From: Escherichia phage AV112
Direction: 5' to 3' (one strand)
Length of the DNA: 64,000 nucleotides
Sequence record: OR352942.1
Both the position numbers and the translations under genes were made by a program. The notes under the pieces were generated by a model that saw only the letters and a program-made list of their open reading frames with translations, ran no database searches and was not told the origin of the DNA. Shown here one piece after another: positions 640 through 50,333 of this stretch (position 1 is the stretch's first letter; every line of letters starts with the position of its first letter).

Positions 640-819
640 TTATGCAGCAACCTTTCCAAAACGAGAAGCATCATCTCGAAGAACTGCACGTGCTCTGCGC
701 ATGATCTTCTCAACCGTTTGATTAATACGAGAGTTCGACCCACGCTTGTATCCAGCGCGTTTAGAGGTACCATCAACTTTCTTTTCGACTGCTTTCTTTG
801 CTTTAGCTTGTTTTGCCAT
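640..819 (-). CDS. small basic Lys/Arg-rich protein (59 aa), not in ORF track
   Basis: my translation MAKQAKAKKAVEKKVDGTSKRAGYKRGSNSRINQTVEKIMRRARAVLRDDASRFGKVAA; followed by terminator hairpin. Confidence 0.45.
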   Translation of the reverse strand: MAKQAKAKKAVEKKVDGTSKRAGYKRGSNSRINQTVEKIMRRARAVLRDDASRFGKVAA

Positions 820-1851: not shown

Positions 1852-2160
1852 TTACATAAGAAGCAAACGTTCTACCGGAGAGCCATCAACCGAAATTACT
1901 TTATCAAGGCGGAAAGAACGCCACTGACCTAACTTGGTATCGAATGCTCGAACTGATTCACGAGGTTCATAACGAACTTCTGTTGCTGGATTGTTATTTT
2001 CATATTTGACTTCAAGTTCATCGCGCGAAGCAAACATAGTGCGTACCTCGCCGTTAGCCTTTTCAAATACAACACAATGAACGCCTACAGACAGAATAGT
2101 TTTAATACGTTCACGAAGAACCATAGTTTCTTGTTCAGTTAAAATCATATTATTCACCAC
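1852..2160 (-). CDS. hypothetical protein (102 aa)
   Basis: ORF between gene 31 and cd. Confidence 0.5.
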   Translation of the reverse strand: MVNNMILTEQETMVLRERIKTILSVGVHCVVFEKANGEVRTMFASRDELEVKYENNNPATEVRYEPRESVRAFDTKLGQWRSFRLDKVISVDGSPVERLLLM

Positions 2161-2731
2161 AAAAGTTTCGGATTTGTTCCCAATTCAGAGAACGAAGATT
2201 ATTACGAGAGTACTGAATTACTTCAATACCGGCTTGTTTTAGAATGTCTGCCCAATTTTCAGGAGATCTGTCATATAATTCTGCGTATACAACCTTTTTA
2301 ATACCTGACTGCGTAATAGCTTTAGTGCAATCAGGACACGGAGAAAGCGTCGTATATAACGTAGCACCTTCAATAGAATTACCTTTACGAGCTGCAAACA
2401 AAATTGCGTTCAGTTCCGCATGGATTTCGTTATTAGCAGACCATGCACTATGAGCCGCTCGATGTTCTTTAGCCAAAACAAAATTATCTGCCCGTCCAAA
2501 TGCCGTAGTGCCTTCTTTATGTCCAGCAACGATGACCGGACTTGGTTTATTCTTCAACCAACCATTTTCAGATGCATGTTCACAACAGTTAATTCCACCT
2601 GCGGGTGAACCATTATATCCAGTAGAGATAATGCGTCCATCTTTTTCAATGACGGCACCAACTTTCCATGAACAACATTTTGATTCTTGAGAAATCAAAT
2701 AAGCAATTTGAAGATACGTGCTAGCTTTCAT
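2150..2731 (-). CDS. cd: dCMP deaminase
   Basis: cytidine/dCMP deaminase zinc motifs HAE...PCxxC (CCEHAS..., HAELNAI, SPCPDC); 193 aa as in T4 Cd. Confidence 0.9.
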   Translation of the reverse strand: MKASTYLQIAYLISQESKCCSWKVGAVIEKDGRIISTGYNGSPAGGINCCEHASENGWLKNKPSPVIVAGHKEGTTAFGRADNFVLAKEHRAAHSAWSANNEIHAELNAILFAARKGNSIEGATLYTTLSPCPDCTKAITQSGIKKVVYAELYDRSPENWADILKQAGIEVIQYSRNNLRSLNWEQIRNFCGE

Positions 2732-3723
2732 TATTGAACCTTATTAATATAAGTTAACAACTCTTTAGTTTGTTCCCAACTGATGCACGCATCGGTAACG
2801 GAAACGCCATAGGACATATTATCAGAAATTTTTTGATTTCCTTCATGTAGGAATGATTCTATCATAATTCCTTTGACCAAATCATTAGCTGCTAAATTTT
2901 TACCAATACCAATTTGATTGCTATAATACCCATCAGCGTTTGCATGGCTACAGTCAACCATTACATAATGATTCAGACCTAATGCACTTGCTTTGTTAGA
3001 AGCTTCTTGAATATCAGAAGAATGATAGTTCGGGCCATTAGTCCCGCCACGCAATACGATATGCGTATTCTGATTACCTTCAGCTTCAACAATGCCTACA
3101 GTACCATCGACATCCATACCCATATACCGATGAGGCCAGGCGGCACTATACATCGCGTCTGTAGCTACTTTAATAGAACCATTGGTTGCGTTCTTGAAGC
3201 CTACGCACATCGGTAGACCTGAAGCAATTTCACGATGTGTCTGACTTTCAGTCGTACGGGCGCCAATAGCAACCCATGAGAAAATACCAGAAAGATACTT
3301 AATCGTGAATGGGTCTAATACTTCAGTTGCTAATGGAAGTCCCATACGTAGAAGTTTACGACACAATGTTCGTGCAACTATAAGACCGTGGTTCATATCA
3401 AAACTTCCGTCAAGATATGGATCATTTACAAGACCTTTCCAACCTACGGTAGTTCGAGGCTTTTCAAAATAAACGCGCATCACTAACAGAACATTAGGAA
3501 GACGAGTTTGAAGTTCAGCCAGACGTTTGCCGTATTCAACAGCAGCAATAGGGTCATGAATTGAACAAGGACCTACAACAATAAGTTTGCGTGGGTCTTC
3601 ACCGTTCATAATCGAATTAACTTGTTCGCGATGAGAAGCCACTTGTGATGCGTAAGCTTCCGACAAAGGAATAATCTCAGCCAGTTCTTTTGGAGAAATA
3701 AGTTTTCTGATGACAGGTAACAT
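2731..3723 (-). CDS. 3-deoxy-7-phosphoheptulonate (DAHP) synthase, class I AroG/AroF-like
   Basis: VVGPCSIHD, MRVYFEKPRTTVGWKGL, AIGARTTESQTHRE, GFKN, HIVLRGG and ESFLHEGNQ motifs line up with E. coli AroG incl. metal ligands. Confidence 0.85.
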   Translation of the reverse strand: MLPVIRKLISPKELAEIIPLSEAYASQVASHREQVNSIMNGEDPRKLIVVGPCSIHDPIAAVEYGKRLAELQTRLPNVLLVMRVYFEKPRTTVGWKGLVNDPYLDGSFDMNHGLIVARTLCRKLLRMGLPLATEVLDPFTIKYLSGIFSWVAIGARTTESQTHREIASGLPMCVGFKNATNGSIKVATDAMYSAAWPHRYMGMDVDGTVGIVEAEGNQNTHIVLRGGTNGPNYHSSDIQEASNKASALGLNHYVMVDCSHANADGYYSNQIGIGKNLAANDLVKGIMIESFLHEGNQKISDNMSYGVSVTDACISWEQTKELLTYINKVQ

Positions 3724-3843
3724 AACAATCCTTAGGAGATATAAACAGATTCTGATTCAACAATACCTTTAACCGGATTAGACAGGCTAAGTTGGTAGTG
3801 CTCAGATTTATGACCATTCATGATAGTAATGAGATAGCTCTCA

Positions 3844-4080
3844 TTATAGTGTTCCATATACTCGAGTTGCTTCAACAAGACCATCACTGCCTAATTTAAG
3901 ATTAGTAATTTGGTCACCATCTTTAGGATTAACGATTATGAGAAAAGAACGAGGAGATTCTTGAATAACTCGTAATGTTGCATCCTGGAAACGTTCAGAC
4001 ACTTTATTGATGAGTGTTTGAGCGAATTCTTTTACTTTAATCTGAAATTCGTGTACTGTAATTGGATTTTCACTTAGCAT
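3844..4080 (-). CDS. hypothetical protein (78 aa)
   Basis: small ORF in the cd-pseT small-gene cluster. Confidence 0.45.
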   Translation of the reverse strand: MLSENPITVHEFQIKVKEFAQTLINKVSERFQDATLRVIQESPRSFLIIVNPKDGDQITNLKLGSDGLVEATRVYGTL

Positions 4081-4107: not shown

Positions 4108-4137
4108 ATCATATCACAACTCTACTGTGTTGTAAAC
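4108..4137 (-). promoter_or_regulatory. T4-type early promoter
   Basis: minus-strand GTTTAC, 18 nt, TG-n-TATGAT, upstream of ORF 3844..4080. Confidence 0.45.

Positions 4138-4816: not shown

Positions 4817-4817
<1 letters not shown>
4626..4817 (-). CDS. hypothetical protein (63 aa)
   Basis: small ORF abutting pseT stop. Confidence 0.4.
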
Positions 4818-5903
<1,086 letters not shown>

Positions 5904-5904
<1 letters not shown>

Positions 5905-6203
5905 TATTTTATTCCTAAGAAAATTTCAAGAATACGAATGTTATGCTCGCGCCGGTCTTTATTAATTTCAGCAACGTTTTTATTAATTGACGTACTTCTA
6001 ACGTTTGAAGAAATAAATTTAATCATATGACTTTTGAGTTGTTGCAAATCCAACCCTTTTTCTTTAGCAGCTTTACGAAGAGCTTTACCTGCTTCATCTA
6101 GTGCCTTTGCTGCATCTTTGTCATAATTGCCAAGTGACATTCCACGGCAGATATCAATATACTCATCAGACCGTTTGATGTAATTCTCTAGTAATGTTTT
6201 CAT
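5904..6203 (-). CDS. hypothetical protein (99 aa)
   Basis: ORF downstream of early promoter at 6232..6261. Confidence 0.5.
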
Positions 6204-6231: not shown

Positions 6232-6261
6232 ATTATACTCTGCTCCTGAGAGTTTGTAAAC
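6232..6261 (-). promoter_or_regulatory. T4-type early promoter
   Basis: minus-strand GTTTAC, 18 nt, TATAAT; -10 sits in loop of dyad GGAGCA...TGCTCC. Confidence 0.5.
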
Positions 6262-7669: not shown

Positions 7670-8803
<1,134 letters not shown>

Positions 8804-8822
8804 TCAGTTAGTTTTTTTTTAA

Positions 8823-8852
8823 ATTGTACCACAATCCTTGTGGCATGTAAAC
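8823..8852 (-). promoter_or_regulatory. T4-type early promoter
   Basis: minus-strand GTTTAC, 18 nt, TACAAT upstream of rnlA. Confidence 0.45.
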
Positions 8853-9262
8853 TACTTTTTCTTATGTTGGATATTCCAAGGCGGGTTGAACTTTTTGATA
8901 AAAAGCGGTTCTTCAAGGTCCATTGTTGCGATGGTCATTGAACCAAGTTCGTTGGTGACTGAAAGGTCAAAACATTGGCGGGCCCAGAATTCAACCTTTT
9001 TGCCTTGCATTAAGGCATCCAAAATCATAAGTGATTTTCTTGAATCTGAAGTCTGGTCTTTTCGATTTATGGCTGTTCGATAATAGTTAATGCGTTTCTT
9101 TAAATTCTTGGTTTTACCAATATACACAAGCTCGTCATCTATAGCAATAGCGTATATGACATTTTTCTTATTAGGGACATCAACTGTTTTAATTGTTGCA
9201 TCTTCTAATAGCTCCAATTCTGTATATTTAATAAAGGAATATTCGGCGGCAATATCTTTCAT
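8852..9262 (-). CDS. denA: endonuclease II (GIY-YIG family)
   Basis: 136 aa, GIY-YIG core IYAIAIDDELVYIGKTKNLKKRINYY; matches T4 EndoII. Confidence 0.85.
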   Translation of the reverse strand: MKDIAAEYSFIKYTELELLEDATIKTVDVPNKKNVIYAIAIDDELVYIGKTKNLKKRINYYRTAINRKDQTSDSRKSLMILDALMQGKKVEFWARQCFDLSVTNELGSMTIATMDLEEPLFIKKFNPPWNIQHKKK

Positions 9263-9288
9263 AATAAAGTGGGACCGAAGTCCCGTCC

Positions 9289-10467
9289 TTAGAAATATTT
9301 TTTGTATGAATTGATTACATTTTGGTCTACATCATTATCAATTTGTGCGACAAGATAAGAACTGATTTCAACTTCCTGAGGAGCTGCTTGAACTAAATCA
9401 GAGTTCAGATATTCACGAATCCAAGGATACGGATGCTTGGTCGGAGCATCAGTGATTGGGCAGGGTAAACCACACTGTTTCATACGAGACACAGTCAAGT
9501 AATCAACAAAAGCACACATACTCTGCGTATTGATACCTGGACATGTACCGTCTTTAAAGAGGTGTGCAGCCCATTCCTTCTCTTGACTATTTACTTCCAT
9601 AAAAATGCCAACTGCTTCTTGTTCACATTCTTTAGCAATTTGAACCCACTCATCACCGTCAGTACCAGATTGAAGTTGACGGATAATGTACTGAGTACCC
9701 TTGAGGTGGAGTTGTTCGTCACGAGCAATGAACTTCATAATCTTTGCATTACCTTCCATAATTTCCATATTTTTATGGAAGTTGAAAGTACATGCGAAAG
9801 ATACATAAAAACGAATAGCTTCCAAGGCGTTAATTACATGAAGGCAAAGATAAAGAGATTTCATTAGCTCACGCTTCCAATATGTCTCATGCTCAATAGC
9901 ATCTTCAATAACGTCTTCGTCTGCATTAATTTCTTTTTGGTATTTGATATCAGCTTTAGCGTTTTCCCAATAACGAGTTTTAACCAGAACATCATCGTAA
10001 TATTTACCTATTGATTCAGCTCGTTTCATGATTGCTTCGTCTAATACAATCTCATCAAATACCTTAGACGGATCGGTATAAAGATTTCGCATAATATGAG
10101 TATACGAACGAGAGTGAATAGTTTCACTGAATGTCCATGTTGCAACCCACGTATCTAATGAAGGGTCAGAAATCAGTGCCATAAGTACCGCAGATGGGGC
10201 CCTGCCTTGGATAGAATCTAATAATGATTGATACTTAAGATTGTTTGTAAAGATGTCCTGTTGGAACTGAGGAAGCTTATTGAACTGTGCAGAGTCCAAC
10301 ATCAAGTTTACCTCTTCGGGACGCCAGAAAAATGACAAGGATTTTTCTATAAGTTCTTCAAAAACTTTATGACGCTGAATATCATACCGGGCGAGGCCGA
10401 GACCAGAACCAAAGAACATCGGTTCATTCAAAACATCAACTTGTTGTGTGTTAAAAACTGTACTCAT
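9289..10467 (-). CDS. nrdB: ribonucleotide reductase small subunit (no intron)
   Basis: di-iron/tyrosyl radical R2 family; start taken at ATG 10467 (MSTVF); continuous ORF. Confidence 0.88.
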   Translation of the reverse strand: MSTVFNTQQVDVLNEPMFFGSGLGLARYDIQRHKVFEELIEKSLSFFWRPEEVNLMLDSAQFNKLPQFQQDIFTNNLKYQSLLDSIQGRAPSAVLMALISDPSLDTWVATWTFSETIHSRSYTHIMRNLYTDPSKVFDEIVLDEAIMKRAESIGKYYDDVLVKTRYWENAKADIKYQKEINADEDVIEDAIEHETYWKRELMKSLYLCLHVINALEAIRFYVSFACTFNFHKNMEIMEGNAKIMKFIARDEQLHLKGTQYIIRQLQSGTDGDEWVQIAKECEQEAVGIFMEVNSQEKEWAAHLFKDGTCPGINTQSMCAFVDYLTVSRMKQCGLPCPITDAPTKHPYPWIREYLNSDLVQAAPQEVEISSYLVAQIDNDVDQNVINSYKKYF

Positions 10468-18662: not shown

Positions 18663-21600
18663 ATGGCCGACATCAAACGTAAGTTCAGAGCCGAAGACGG
18701 TCTGGACGCCGGTGGCGACAAGATTGTTAACGTAGCATTAGCCGACCGTACAGTAGGTACTGATGGCGTAAACGTTGACTTCCTGGTACAAGAAAACACC
18801 GTTCAAGTATATGATTCTACGCGCGGATATAACAAAGGATTTGTTGTTCTTTATGACAACCGTTTATATCAAGCAATAAATGATATCGTGTCTCCTTCCG
18901 GGGCATTTAACCTTTTACAATGGCGTGCAGTTCGTACCGATGCACAATGGATAACTGTCTCTTCTGGGACTTATCAACTTTCTTCAGGTGAATCGATTTC
19001 GGTTAACACTGGTGCCGGCAATGATATGGTTTTCACATTGCCAAATGCGCCGGTTGATGGTGACACTGTTGTTTTGGCTGATATTGGTGGAAGAACCGGG
19101 ACAGTTAAAGTACAGATTAACGCGTCTGTGCAGAGTATTTTAAACTTTAGAGGTGAACAAGTTCGTACAGTTTTAATGACGCGCCCACGTTCACAACTAT
19201 TGTTTGTGTTTAGTAATCGTTTGTGGCAGATGTATATTACCGATTATGGTAAAGAATCAATCACTGTTACACCTGCGGCACCATATCAAGCACAAGCAAA
19301 TGATTTTATCGTTCGTCGTTTTACTAGTGCAGCACCAATCAACATTACACTTCCACGTAATGCTAACAATGGTGATATAATCAGCCTAGTCGATTTAGAT
19401 AGATTAAACCCACTGTATCATACAATTGTTAAAACATTTGATGATACAACGTCTATTGGTGAAGTCGGGACTCATATTGCCGAAGGCAGAAATGACTCTG
19501 ACGCGTTTTTTGTTTTTGATGCTGCAAATAGTTTATGGCGTATATGGGAAGGCGACCAGAAATCGCGTCTTCGTATTATCCGTGTGGATTCAAATATTCG
19601 TCCAAATGAAGAAGTTCTTATTTTTGGCACAAATAACGCTACAGCCGGAACTATTAATCTTACGCTGCCTTCTGGAATTTTGAGTGGTGACACCGTTAAA
19701 ATTTCAATGAACTACATGCGTAAAGGCCAAACAGTAAAAATTAAAGCTGCCGAAGGTGATACAATTGCTTCTTCTGTTGCGTTGCTTCAGTTCCCTAAAC
19801 GTTCGGAGTATCCACCTGATGCACAATGGGTCTCTGTTACTGAACTAGAATTCAATGGCACTACTTCATATGTTCCTGTATTAGAATTAGCGTATATCGA
19901 AGACACCGTTGCTGGTACGCGTTATTGGGTTGTTAAACAAAACGTCCCAACTGTAGAACGTGTCGATGCTGGAACTGATACAACTAGAGCTCGTGTAGGT
20001 GTTATTGCTCTTGCAACTCAGGCACAGGCAAATGTTGATTTTGAAAATTCTCCGGCTAAAGAAGTTGCTATTACTCCTGAAACGTTGGCAAATCGTACAG
20101 CAACTGAAGCTCGACGTGGTATCGCCAAAATTGCTACAACAGCACAAGTTAACCAGAATTCCACAGCAACATTTGTAGACGATACTATTGTTACGCCTAA
20201 AAAATTAAATGAGCGTACAGCAACTGAAACTCGTCGCGGTCTTGCTGAAATTGCTACTCAGACTGAAACCGATGCTGGTCTTGATGACACAACGATTATT
20301 ACGCCTAAGAAATTACAGGCACGTCAGGGTTCCGAAACACTATCGGGTATAGTTAAATATGTATCAACTACTTCTGCTACTCCTGCCGAAACTCGTGGGG
20401 CTGCAGGCACTAATGTTTATAATAAAACCGTAAATAATTTAACTATTTCTCCTAAAGCCCTTGACCAATATAAAGCAACTTACGCCCAACAAGGTGCAGT
20501 AATTTTAGCTATTGATAGTGAAGTAATTGCTGGACAATCTCAGTCTGGATACTCTCATGCTGTAGTAACTCCTGAAACACTACATAAGAAAACTTCTACT
20601 GATGGACGTATTGGTTTAATTGAAATTGCTACGCAAGCAGAAACTAATGCTGGGACTGATTATACACGTGCAGTAACGCCTAAGACGTTAAATGATAGGA
20701 GAGCGACGGAAGGATTATCCGGCATAGCCGAAATTGCTACGCAAGTTGAATTTGATACTGGAACTGATGATACTCGTATCTCGACTCCACTGAAAATTAA
20801 AACTCATTTTGATTCTTCTGACCGTACCAGTGTTAATTCTGATTCCGGACTTATTGAAGAAGGAACCTTGTGGAACCATTATACTCTTGATATTTCTAAA
20901 GCAAATGAAACACAACGTGGTACACTTCGCGTAGCGACCCAGGCAGAATCTAATGCAGGAACTTTAGATGATGTTCTTATTACTCCTAAAAAGCTTTTAG
21001 GGACTAAGTCCACTGAAACGTCTGAAGGTGTAATCAAGGTTGCAACCCAGTCTGAAACTGTGACTGGAACGTCAGCGAACACTGCTGTATCTCCTAAGAA
21101 TTTAAAATGGATTGTGCAGAGTGAACCAACATGGGCTGCTACTACAGCAATTCGCGGATTCGTTAAAACTTCATCCGGTTCTATTACATTCGTTGGTAAT
21201 GATACAGTCGGTTCTACACAAAACTTAGAGCTATACGAGAAAAATAGCTATGCAGTATCACCGTATGAATTAAACCGTGTATTGGCAAATTACTTGCCAT
21301 TAAAAGCAAAAGCTGCTGACGCAAATTTATTAGATGGCCTAGATTCATCTCAGTTCATTCGTAGGGACATTGCACAGACGGTTAATGGTTCACTAACCTT
21401 AACCCAACAAACGAATCTGAGTGCCCCTCTTGTATCATCTAGTACGGCTACGTTTGGTGGTTCGGTATCTGCTAATAGTACATTAACTATTTCTAATACA
21501 GGTGCTTCAACTCGCTTAATATTTGAAAAAGGTCCACAAACTGGAAACAACCCTGCTCAGGCGATGAATATCCGTGTATGGGGTAACCAATTCGCCGGCG

Positions 21601-50144: not shown

Positions 50145-50333
50145 TCATTTCCAAGGACTCCATGGTGGAGGGTCGTCATAATAAGAGGCAAGGTCTTTCA
50201 GGGCTTCAACAGGTAAACTAAAGCCGTGACGTTGTATAATACTATCTAGTTCATCAACAAGTTCACTACGATGCACTTTAGGAGCCTCAACTTCGGGCTC
50301 ATCAAACATACTCATCAAGTCCATATTATTCAC
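50145..50333 (-). CDS. hypothetical protein (62 aa)
   Basis: small ORF. Confidence 0.4.
   Translation of the reverse strand: MNNMDLMSMFDEPEVEAPKVHRSELVDELDSIIQRHGFSLPVEALKDLASYYDDPPPWSPWK

Follow-up and report, generated by a model that had tools for sequence, protein, structure and literature searches.

A DAHP synthase gene between cd and pseT

The window analyzed here is a stretch of 64,000 nucleotides (nt) of Escherichia phage AV112 (OR352942.1), and it is 100% identical to the record of Escherichia phage AV113 (OR352943; Straboviridae, Tevenvirinae, Mosigvirus). Near its start, an open reading frame (ORF) encodes a protein of the type I-alpha 3-deoxy-7-phosphoheptulonate (DAHP) synthase family, here called DAHPS.

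2731..3723, minus strand: DAHPS coding sequence, protein WPK34689, 330 amino acids (aa), ATG start; type I-alpha DAHP synthase

The gene order is gp31, 31.1, cd, DAHPS, a 41-aa ORF, cd.2-like, cd.3-like, two small ORFs, and pseT, followed farther along by alc, rnlA, denA, nrdB, nrdA, td, frd, and gp32; this is a T4-type early/middle block. A preliminary description, made from the letters of the window, had placed the gene among small ORFs between cd (2150..2731) and pseT (4817..5716), in an interval where T4 has small ORFs only. Both statements hold, the T4 ORFs being cd.1 to cd.5. The four motifs that it quoted are also present in the ORF, with GPCSIHD at residue 51, HIVLRGG at 221, ESFLHEGNQ at 289, and VTDACISWE at 309.

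Assignment of the product to the AroG/AroF type of DAHP synthase was confirmed by Pfam, NCBIfam, and PDB matches and by the predicted fold. Pfam DAHP_synth_1 (PF00793) matched with an E value of 2e-74 (250 bits; cut-off, 25.5), the NCBIfam equivalog TIGR00034 (aroFGH) scored 426 bits (cut-off, 173), and the PRK12755 model scored 454 bits (cut-off, 343). The AroG-specific model NF006723 (362 bits; cut-off, 568) and the AroH-specific model NF009396 (384 bits; cut-off, 463) both fell below their thresholds. The phrog_5045 profile covers the protein fully (E = 1.5e-181; residues 1 to 330 on profile positions 8 to 337 of 341). The best solved relative is the Tyr-sensitive AroF of E. coli (6AGM; E = 1e-104), with query residue 8 aligned to chain residue 17. 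Over the whole barrel, DAHPS is 51, 47, and 44% identical to AroF, AroG, and AroH of E. coli K-12, respectively. We conclude that the family assignment is far beyond chance.

Catalytic residues and predicted fold

We aligned DAHPS with AroG, AroF, and AroH of E. coli K-12 and with six phage homologues. The metal ligands are C53, H260, E289, and D311, which correspond to C61, H268, E302, and D326 of AroG. Cys53, Glu289, and Asp311 had been named correctly in the preliminary description. Its choice of the His in HIVLRGG as the fourth ligand was wrong: the real ligand is H260, in the motif DCSHAN, and HIVLRGG holds no metal ligand in the alignment, contributing instead R225 to the phosphoenolpyruvate (PEP) site. 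That site consists of R83, K88, G154, A155, R156, K177, and R225, equivalent to AroG R92, K97, G163, A164, R165, K186, and R234. The erythrose-4-phosphate (E4P) motif KPRTT, at residues 88 to 92, is invariant. KDO8P synthase has a motif that differs from the E4P motif KPRT(T/S) of DAHP synthase.

We then surveyed 120 database homologues plus references, divided into a phage clade (n = 28) and bacterial relatives (n = 97). The metal ligands do not vary in the 28 phage-clade sequences, and 14 catalytic or substrate-binding positions, including KPRT, are invariant in all 28 phage-clade and all 97 bacterial sequences. No catalytic residue has been lost relative to AroG, AroF, and AroH.

An AlphaFold2 model of DAHPS, built from a 43-sequence alignment, had a mean predicted local distance difference test score of 92.5 and a predicted template modeling (TM) score of 0.92. 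Its (beta/alpha)8 barrel fits 4HSO, 8E0X, 1KFL, and 1QR7, which are DAH7PS structures from N. meningitidis and E. coli, with Foldseek TM scores of 0.94 to 0.96 and root mean square deviations of 1.5 to 1.7 Å. The beta6a/beta6b regulatory hairpin is kept (model strands 198 to 203 and 209 to 214) and aligns without gaps with AroG residues 207 to 223. All the tests run agree with a catalytically intact, AroF-like type I-alpha enzyme that is an accessory metabolic gene product of a T4-like phage, as had been proposed. We conclude that the product is very probably an active DAHP synthase, judging from its sequence and predicted structure.

Replacement of inhibitor-site residues in the phage clade

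In type I-alpha enzymes, the inhibitor pocket is formed by the N-terminal extension and the beta6a/beta6b hairpin at the tight-dimer interface (PMC4735112). In AroG/AroF, Q151/Q152 and S180/S181 hold the main chain of the inhibitor, D155/D156 forms a stabilizing salt bridge, and P150L, S180F, and D146N are among the feedback-resistant variants (PMC9529685).

DAHPS lacks the full type I-alpha N-terminal extension, since AroG residues 2 to 9 have no counterpart in the alignment. The shortened N terminus is genuine, because an in-frame TGA lies 12 codons upstream of the ATG with no ATG, GTG, or TTG between them, so that the reading frame cannot be extended. The term "full-length" in the preliminary description is therefore right for the catalytic barrel and wrong for the N terminus, which starts 8 to 9 residues later than those of AroG, AroF, and AroH. 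Every phage-clade protein has 48 to 53 residues before the catalytic Cys, and bacterial relatives have 58 to 95.

DAHPS has I141, K142, G146, P171, and Y200 at AroG positions 150, 151, 155, 180, and 209 and A214 at position 223, which corresponds in AroG numbering to the substitutions P150I, Q151K, D155G, S180P, F209Y, and T223A. The same signature was found in all 28 phage-clade proteins, save for two that vary at a single position (P0020 and P0022), whereas about 96 of the 97 bacterial relatives have the canonical P/V-Q-D-S-F and at least 58 residues before the Cys. Q151 and S180 have given way to other residues in all 28 phage-clade proteins and in ~1 of the 97 bacterial proteins. Near-fixed differences between the two groups occupy only six of 329 aligned positions (150, 151, 155, 180, 209, and 223). 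For five of them, a role in the inhibitor site or in feedback resistance had been described previously (PMC9529685), which is an enrichment with a hypergeometric P value of 6e-7 to 2e-6. The sixth, position 223, is part of the hairpin and is two residues away from V221; the V221A variant is feedback-resistant.

An alignment of the allosteric site with those of AroG, AroF, and AroH had been suggested in the preliminary description, together with the idea that the phage enzyme might escape host feedback inhibition. The alignment shows a truncated N-terminal extension and replaced inhibitor-contact residues, and these two features lend specific support to the idea. We consider it likely that DAHPS is insensitive, or far less sensitive, to Tyr, Phe, and Trp.

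The only noncanonical protein among the ~97 bacterial relatives, P0113 (L018, positions 8769 to 9851; a JGI metagenome), has Q146, A150, G151, P180, and H209. We considered it as a precedent from a biosynthetic gene cluster and rejected this, as it lies in an ordinary chromosomal context (uvrC, DctPQM, and a peptide ABC transporter).

DAHP synthases of other viruses

The DAHPS of Aeromonas phage HJ05 (79 kb) is 38% identical to that of the window, has its best matches among bacterial proteins, and keeps all catalytic residues. At AroG positions 150, 151, 155, 180, and 209 it has A-H-P-P-V. A jumbo-phage-like lineage represented by L034 (a 262-kb IMG/VR contig) and L035 has P-N-H-P-Y at these positions and a full-length N terminus. 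A neighbor-joining tree, which carries no support values, groups L034 with the T4-like clade as its sister and sets HJ05 clearly apart. Because the tree places L034 beside the T4-like clade, we did not count it as an independent loss.

About 60 IMG/VR hits, from metagenome-assembled genome (MAG) bins of giant viruses and from large contigs or sequences of cellular type, keep the canonical site. It is likewise kept in L031 to L033, which are AroF-like and are probably host genes at provirus boundaries. We therefore rejected the generalization that all viral DAHP synthases lose the site, given that the giant-virus MAG hits and the likely provirus-boundary hits are canonical. Among the sequences compared, the canonical inhibitor site appears to be lost in tailed-phage lineages only (T4-like, L034, and HJ05) and not in every "viral" hit.

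Several features of these loci are recorded here as separate observations. The L034 gene (3971 to 5020) also has S223 and overlaps a thymidylate kinase gene (4983 to 5663) by 38 nt; genes upstream of it encode a Topo-I-like protein of eukaryotic type and a Nudix hydrolase. In HJ05, the product of a gene ~130 bp downstream of the DAHPS gene (L015, 6196 to 6546) is 116 aa long and contains an Acb2/Tad1 hairpin domain (Pfam E = 8.5e-17). The Acb2/Tad1 family comprises anti-CBASS and anti-Thoeris signal sponges. Also encoded nearby are a methyltransferase and an ATP-pyrophosphatase of the Asn-synthase/QueC-like type. The giant-virus MAG bins contain AT-rich fusions of ~650 to 680 aa, in which a type I-alpha DAHPS with the canonical site is joined to a C-terminal prephenate dehydratase (L062, L069, L073, L080, L082, L085, L088 to L090, L092, L096, L097, and L099; for PF00800, prephenate dehydratase, in L062, E = 8e-17). 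On these putatively viral contigs, the first shikimate step and the Phe branch are thus combined in one polypeptide.

Genomic neighborhood and expression

The features around DAHPS that bear on its expression are as follows.

2150..2731, minus strand: cd, dCMP deaminase, immediately downstream of DAHPS
2729..2733, minus strand: TAATG, in which the DAHPS stop codon and the cd start codon share one base
3729..3733, minus strand: Shine-Dalgarno-like AAGGA, 6 to 10 nt upstream of the DAHPS ATG (sequence read directly)
3732..3857, minus strand: 41-aa ORF of unassigned function, inside the cassette described below, between the cd.2-like ORF and DAHPS
3844..4080, minus strand: cd.2-like ORF, 78 aa, DUF7320, the first gene past the promoter-like site
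4108..4136, minus strand: early-promoter-like GTTTACA-N17(TG)-TATGAT, flanked by the cd.3-like and cd.2-like ORFs

The site at 4108..4136 is the nearest promoter-like site on the DAHPS strand, and the T4 record annotates an early promoter, Pe133295, at the matching position. It is likely that the site promotes a unit consisting of the cd.2-like ORF, the 41-aa ORF, DAHPS, and cd. A scan of the minus strand from the promoter-like site to cd found no terminator. Since the promoter-like site lies at the position of a T4 early promoter and no terminator intervenes, DAHPS and cd are probably cotranscribed, and we believe there is a good likelihood that DAHPS is expressed early, together with cd. The TAATG overlap suggests translational coupling of DAHPS with dCMP deaminase. 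A search for MotA boxes (middle promoters) found no site upstream of DAHPS, and the total count was not above chance.

The nearest MotA-box-like site, TATGCTTTA, is at 1843 to 1851, upstream of gene 31. A second strong early-promoter-like site, TTTACA-17-TATAAT (6232 to 6260, minus strand; 11 of 12 matches), lies upstream of a 99-aa ORF (5904 to 6203). The window contains no tRNA genes. DAHPS is the only shikimate or chorismate gene that the AV113 record annotates, and hence the six downstream steps must be those of the host.

A repeat-bounded accessory cassette

An imperfect 15-nt direct repeat, with copies 1113 bp apart, flanks the AV113-specific segment, and the resulting 1.1-kb cassette consists of DAHPS and the 41-aa ORF.

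2720..2734: downstream repeat copy, the true cd start; coding strand, ATAATGAAAGCTAGC
3833..3847: upstream repeat copy, a fossil of the cd start; coding strand, ATAATGAGAGCTATC

The upstream copy opens a fossil ORF of eight codons, MRAISLLS followed by a stop codon. RB69, the Mosigvirus type phage, lacks DAHPS, and its cd abuts cd.2; this empty junction (RB69 locus L011, ~8241) is an exact recombinant of the two repeat copies. The empty junction is found in 11 Mosigvirus records: RB69 (two), ECO111 5-P, vB_Eco_mar005P1 (five), JK42, JK36, and moha. Of the phages assigned to the species Mosigvirus mar005p1, G2469 carries DAHPS and mar005P1 itself is without it. Together, the repeat-bounded cassette and the empty junctions indicate that the gene has been gained or lost by short-homology recombination. 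We read DAHPS as a conditionally useful accessory cassette and not a core gene. The empty junctions mark the slot next to cd as a recombination hot spot; T4 has cd.1 in this slot.

In the RB69 record (NC_004928), cd (L011, 7743 to 8252) is annotated as 169 aa with a C terminus, ...ILKPSWY, that diverges from the 193-aa protein of AV113 and T4 length. The divergence suggests that the reference record contains a frameshift or a sequencing error.

Distribution, age, and selection

Using tblastn, we found homologues in 212 phage records, of which 139 (Mosigvirus) are at least 95% identical; identity is 77% for Kanagawavirus, about 67% for the homologues of Klebsiella, Serratia, and Erwinia phages, and 58% for those of Proteus phages. 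A survey of relatives, also suggested in the preliminary description, showed that the order pseT, small ORFs, DAHPS, zero to two small ORFs, cd recurs across genera. We observed it in members of Mosigvirus, Kanagawavirus, Marfavirus, Winklervirus, Bragavirus, and Kagamiyamavirus, and a divergent metagenomic T4-like contig has it too.

When 5.8 billion proteins were searched, the members of the phage clade (57 to 98% identical; 319 to 343 aa) stood cleanly apart from bacterial homologues, which come from mixed phyla and are at most 55% identical to DAHPS. This separation argues against recent capture from E. coli. DAHPS has a GC content of 40.4% (28% at third codon positions [GC3]), the window has a GC content of 37.7%, and host aroF, aroG, and aroH have GC3 values of 50 to 57%; the Proteus phage copy has a GC content of 32.5%. 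The phage-like GC3 indicates that the gene is an old, ameliorated resident.

Between genera, the ratio of nonsynonymous to synonymous substitution rates (dN/dS) was 0.14 to 0.25 for DAHPS, with dS mostly saturated, and 0.09 to 0.32 for the neighboring cd. The least saturated pair had a dS of 0.62 and an omega of 0.16. Within Mosigvirus, the dS of DAHPS is just 0.01 to 0.03, with too few substitutions for dN/dS. The between-genus ratios indicate that DAHPS is under purifying selection.

Proposed role and alternative explanations

The explanation that we favor, with some reserve, is that DAHPS is an early-expressed, feedback-insensitive DAHP synthase that sustains the supply of chorismate and aromatic compounds. 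It would act as a metal-dependent type I-alpha enzyme that converts PEP and E4P to DAHP and phosphate, and it would probably be transcribed early in infection, with dCMP deaminase, from a T4-type early promoter. It would most likely not respond to Tyr, Phe, or Trp, because of its shortened N-terminal extension and the fixed substitutions Q151K, S180P, D155G, P150I, F209Y, and T223A. The three isozymes of the host would stay feedback inhibited and could not be reinduced once host transcription is off, and the phage enzyme would keep carbon entering the remaining six shikimate steps of the host. Chorismate and its products would then be sustained whatever the state of the aromatic amino acid pool, providing aromatic amino acids for virion protein, p-aminobenzoate (pABA) and folate, and quinones. 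That the selective benefit is this sustained supply, at a time when the host isozymes are inhibited and cannot be reinduced, is in our judgment an evenly balanced proposition. The key products may be aromatic amino acids, pABA and folate for the adjacent td, frd, and cd chemistry, or quinones; the proximity of pyrimidine deoxynucleoside monophosphate (dNMP) genes in two lineages is just a hint.

Several points weigh against this explanation. Mosigvirus phages that lack DAHPS (RB69, mar005P1, JK36/JK42, moha, and ECO111 5-P) show that it is dispensable for plaque formation and laboratory growth. No assay of a phage DAHPS and no data on its complementation, expression, or fitness turned up in the literature searched. 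The AlphaFold2 model is a monomer and cannot show a pocket at the dimer interface. The entropy thresholds that define the fixed differences were chosen by us, and all six differences trace to one ancestral branch. DAHPS retains D146, the Pro at AroG position 147, the Gly at position 211 (Tyr-type), the beta6a/beta6b hairpin, and equivalents of AroG I10 and I13, and K142 could still contact a carboxylate, making residual sensitivity possible. Lastly, the replaced positions are more conserved in the phage clade (mean entropy, 0.32) than in bacteria (0.67). This lower entropy suggests that the pocket was rebuilt under constraint and has not decayed, and such constraint would fit a locked-open site but also a site for a new ligand.

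Some of these points are what would be expected of an ordinary extra Tyr-type DAHPS that is still feedback regulated and raises capacity, its substitutions being neutral or adaptations of the dimer interface. DAHPS is closest to AroF (51%), it shares Pro147 and Gly211 with Tyr-sensitive enzymes and retains the hairpin and D146, and the case for insensitivity is made from sequence. We nevertheless think this unlikely. The Q151 and S180 contacts are replaced throughout the phage clade and in almost none of the bacterial relatives (28 of 28 versus ~1 of 97), substitutions of P150 and S180 make AroG feedback resistant, the N-terminal extension is truncated, and the same losses have occurred independently in HJ05.

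The conservation of the remodeled positions, which is greater than in bacteria, bears on another possibility, namely, that the pocket has been respecified. The conserved I-K-G-P-Y-A (I141, K142, G146, P171, Y200, and A214) would then bind a new effector, such as chorismate or prephenate, a nucleotide, or a phage metabolite, or a protein partner (e.g., dCMP deaminase or the deoxynucleoside triphosphate [dNTP] synthesis machinery), tying shikimate entry to the phage program. A new Lys stands where the main chain of the ligand binds, the gene lies in a nucleotide metabolism block with its stop codon overlapping the cd start, and the L034 copy overlaps a thymidylate kinase gene. However, the conservation could equally reflect packing that locks an active conformation or a tight dimer, and the different residues of HJ05 (A-H-P-P-V) and L034 (P-N-H-P-Y) argue against one shared new ligand. 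We regard this possibility as rather improbable. If it were true, the respecified pocket would couple shikimate and chorismate (folate) entry to the phage nucleotide program, a virus-evolved allosteric specificity in a textbook enzyme.

It is highly improbable that DAHPS serves as an E4P/PEP sink that pulls the nonoxidative pentose phosphate pathway toward pentose phosphates for nucleotides or lowers PEP. The gene adjoins pyrimidine dNMP genes in two phage lineages, which is circumstantial, and other phages carry pentose phosphate auxiliary metabolic genes (AMGs), e.g., talC of cyanophages. Such a sink would be stoichiometrically wasteful, however; T4-like genomes are without strict functional operons, and an unregulated DAHPS that raises chorismate is simpler. 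We give almost no credence to a decaying or selfish passenger cassette without a role for the phage, since despite the presence/absence polymorphism in one species (G2469 and mar005P1) and the bounding 15-nt direct repeat, the catalytic residues are all invariant, dN/dS is 0.14 to 0.25, and the gene has been kept at a single locus in six or more genera and has fully taken on phage composition, including in the Proteus phage copy with its GC content of 32.5%.

A link to DNA modification was considered because type I enzymes condense PEP with sugar phosphates and AV113 encodes a D-arabinose-5-phosphate (A5P) isomerase (L102, 2302 to 2937; record positions 98301 to 98936, outside the window), which is beside the DNA polymerase gene. 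Homologues of the isomerase are present in 275 phage records, including those of RB69 and ~57 Acinetobacter T4-like phages, and we take the AV113 enzyme to fit arabinosyl-hydroxymethylcytosine DNA modification. We rejected a connection to DAHPS, the two genes being uncoupled in their distribution, since the isomerase is present in RB69, mar005P1, and JK42, all of which lack DAHPS, and the KPRT E4P motif is intact. In addition, no Klebsiella phage is among the isomerase matches listed, and 25 Klebsiella phage records carry DAHPS.

Comparison with known systems

The gene and its reading as an AMG are already known at the level of annotation, and a phage-borne DAHPS is in itself ordinary. The deposited AV113 record names the gene, and PHROGs lists phrog_5045 as "phospho-2-dehydro-3-deoxyheptonate aldolase" in the category "moron, auxiliary metabolic gene and host takeover." In 2025, the DAHP synthetase of Kanagawavirus KLB31 was listed as an amino acid AMG (PMC11845039), and the phiC120 genome paper mentions a DAHPS domain (PMC8022965). 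These entries concern the same family and share the AMG reading; they are annotations and do not include analysis of the regulatory site, the cassette, or the polymorphism. A full-text literature search returned phage DAHPS at the annotation level only and no functional, biochemical, or genetic study. The main new result is the specifically remodeled regulatory site indicated by the comparisons above.

The OR352943 annotation also contains implausible names. The name "1,4-alpha-glucan branching enzyme" is given to a 59-aa ORF, "tail fibers protein" to gp31.1 (Pfam WYL_2/SH3), and "molybdenum ABC transporter ModA" to a 54-aa ORF next to the ModA/ModB ADP-ribosyltransferases (window positions 640 to 819, 1852 to 2148, and about 50145 to 50309, respectively). 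Outside the window there is a run of genes named "thioredoxin." A misc_feature, "Dupl_ends_SPAdes," at window positions 19556 to 19682, inside the long-tail-fiber gene, carries a label that the assembler gives to duplicated ends and may reflect an assembly artifact.

If DAHPS is naturally insensitive, the virus would take over a host pathway by means of a deregulated gatekeeper enzyme and with no new pathway, and the enzyme would be a ready-made, evolution-tested alternative to engineered feedback-resistant AroG/AroF variants in strains that produce aromatic compounds. The natural gene-plus and gene-minus phages of one species (G2469 and mar005P1), together with RB69, make the question of fitness directly testable.

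Relative to E. coli AroF (6AGM), AroG, and AroH, the phage DAHPS has identical metal, PEP, and E4P residues and the same fold (TM score, ~0.95), and it resembles AroF in the Tyr-type Pro and Gly at AroG positions 147 and 211. It differs from all three in lacking the first 8 to 9 N-terminal residues and in having two short C-terminal deletions. Like the feedback-resistant AroG/AroF variants P150L, S180F, and D146N (PMC9529685), it is changed at positions 150 and 180, and it is changed at the inhibitor-contacting Q151 too. Unlike those engineered or selected variants, the phage changes are natural, multiple, and clade-wide and involve other residues (Ile, Pro, and Lys), from which resistance is inferred. 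PhzC (PaeDAH7PS-PA1901) is a natural type IIB DAH7PS of phenazine clusters that shows no sensitivity to aromatic amino acids and is without allosteric elements (PMC6435475). The likeness to our proposal is that of an unregulated DAH7PS that supplies chorismate for one dedicated use, alongside housekeeping isozymes that remain under regulation (PMC6435475). PhzC differs, however, in being bacterial and of type II instead of type I-alpha, and its insensitivity is due to the deletion of helices and to a new dimer interface and not to point replacements.

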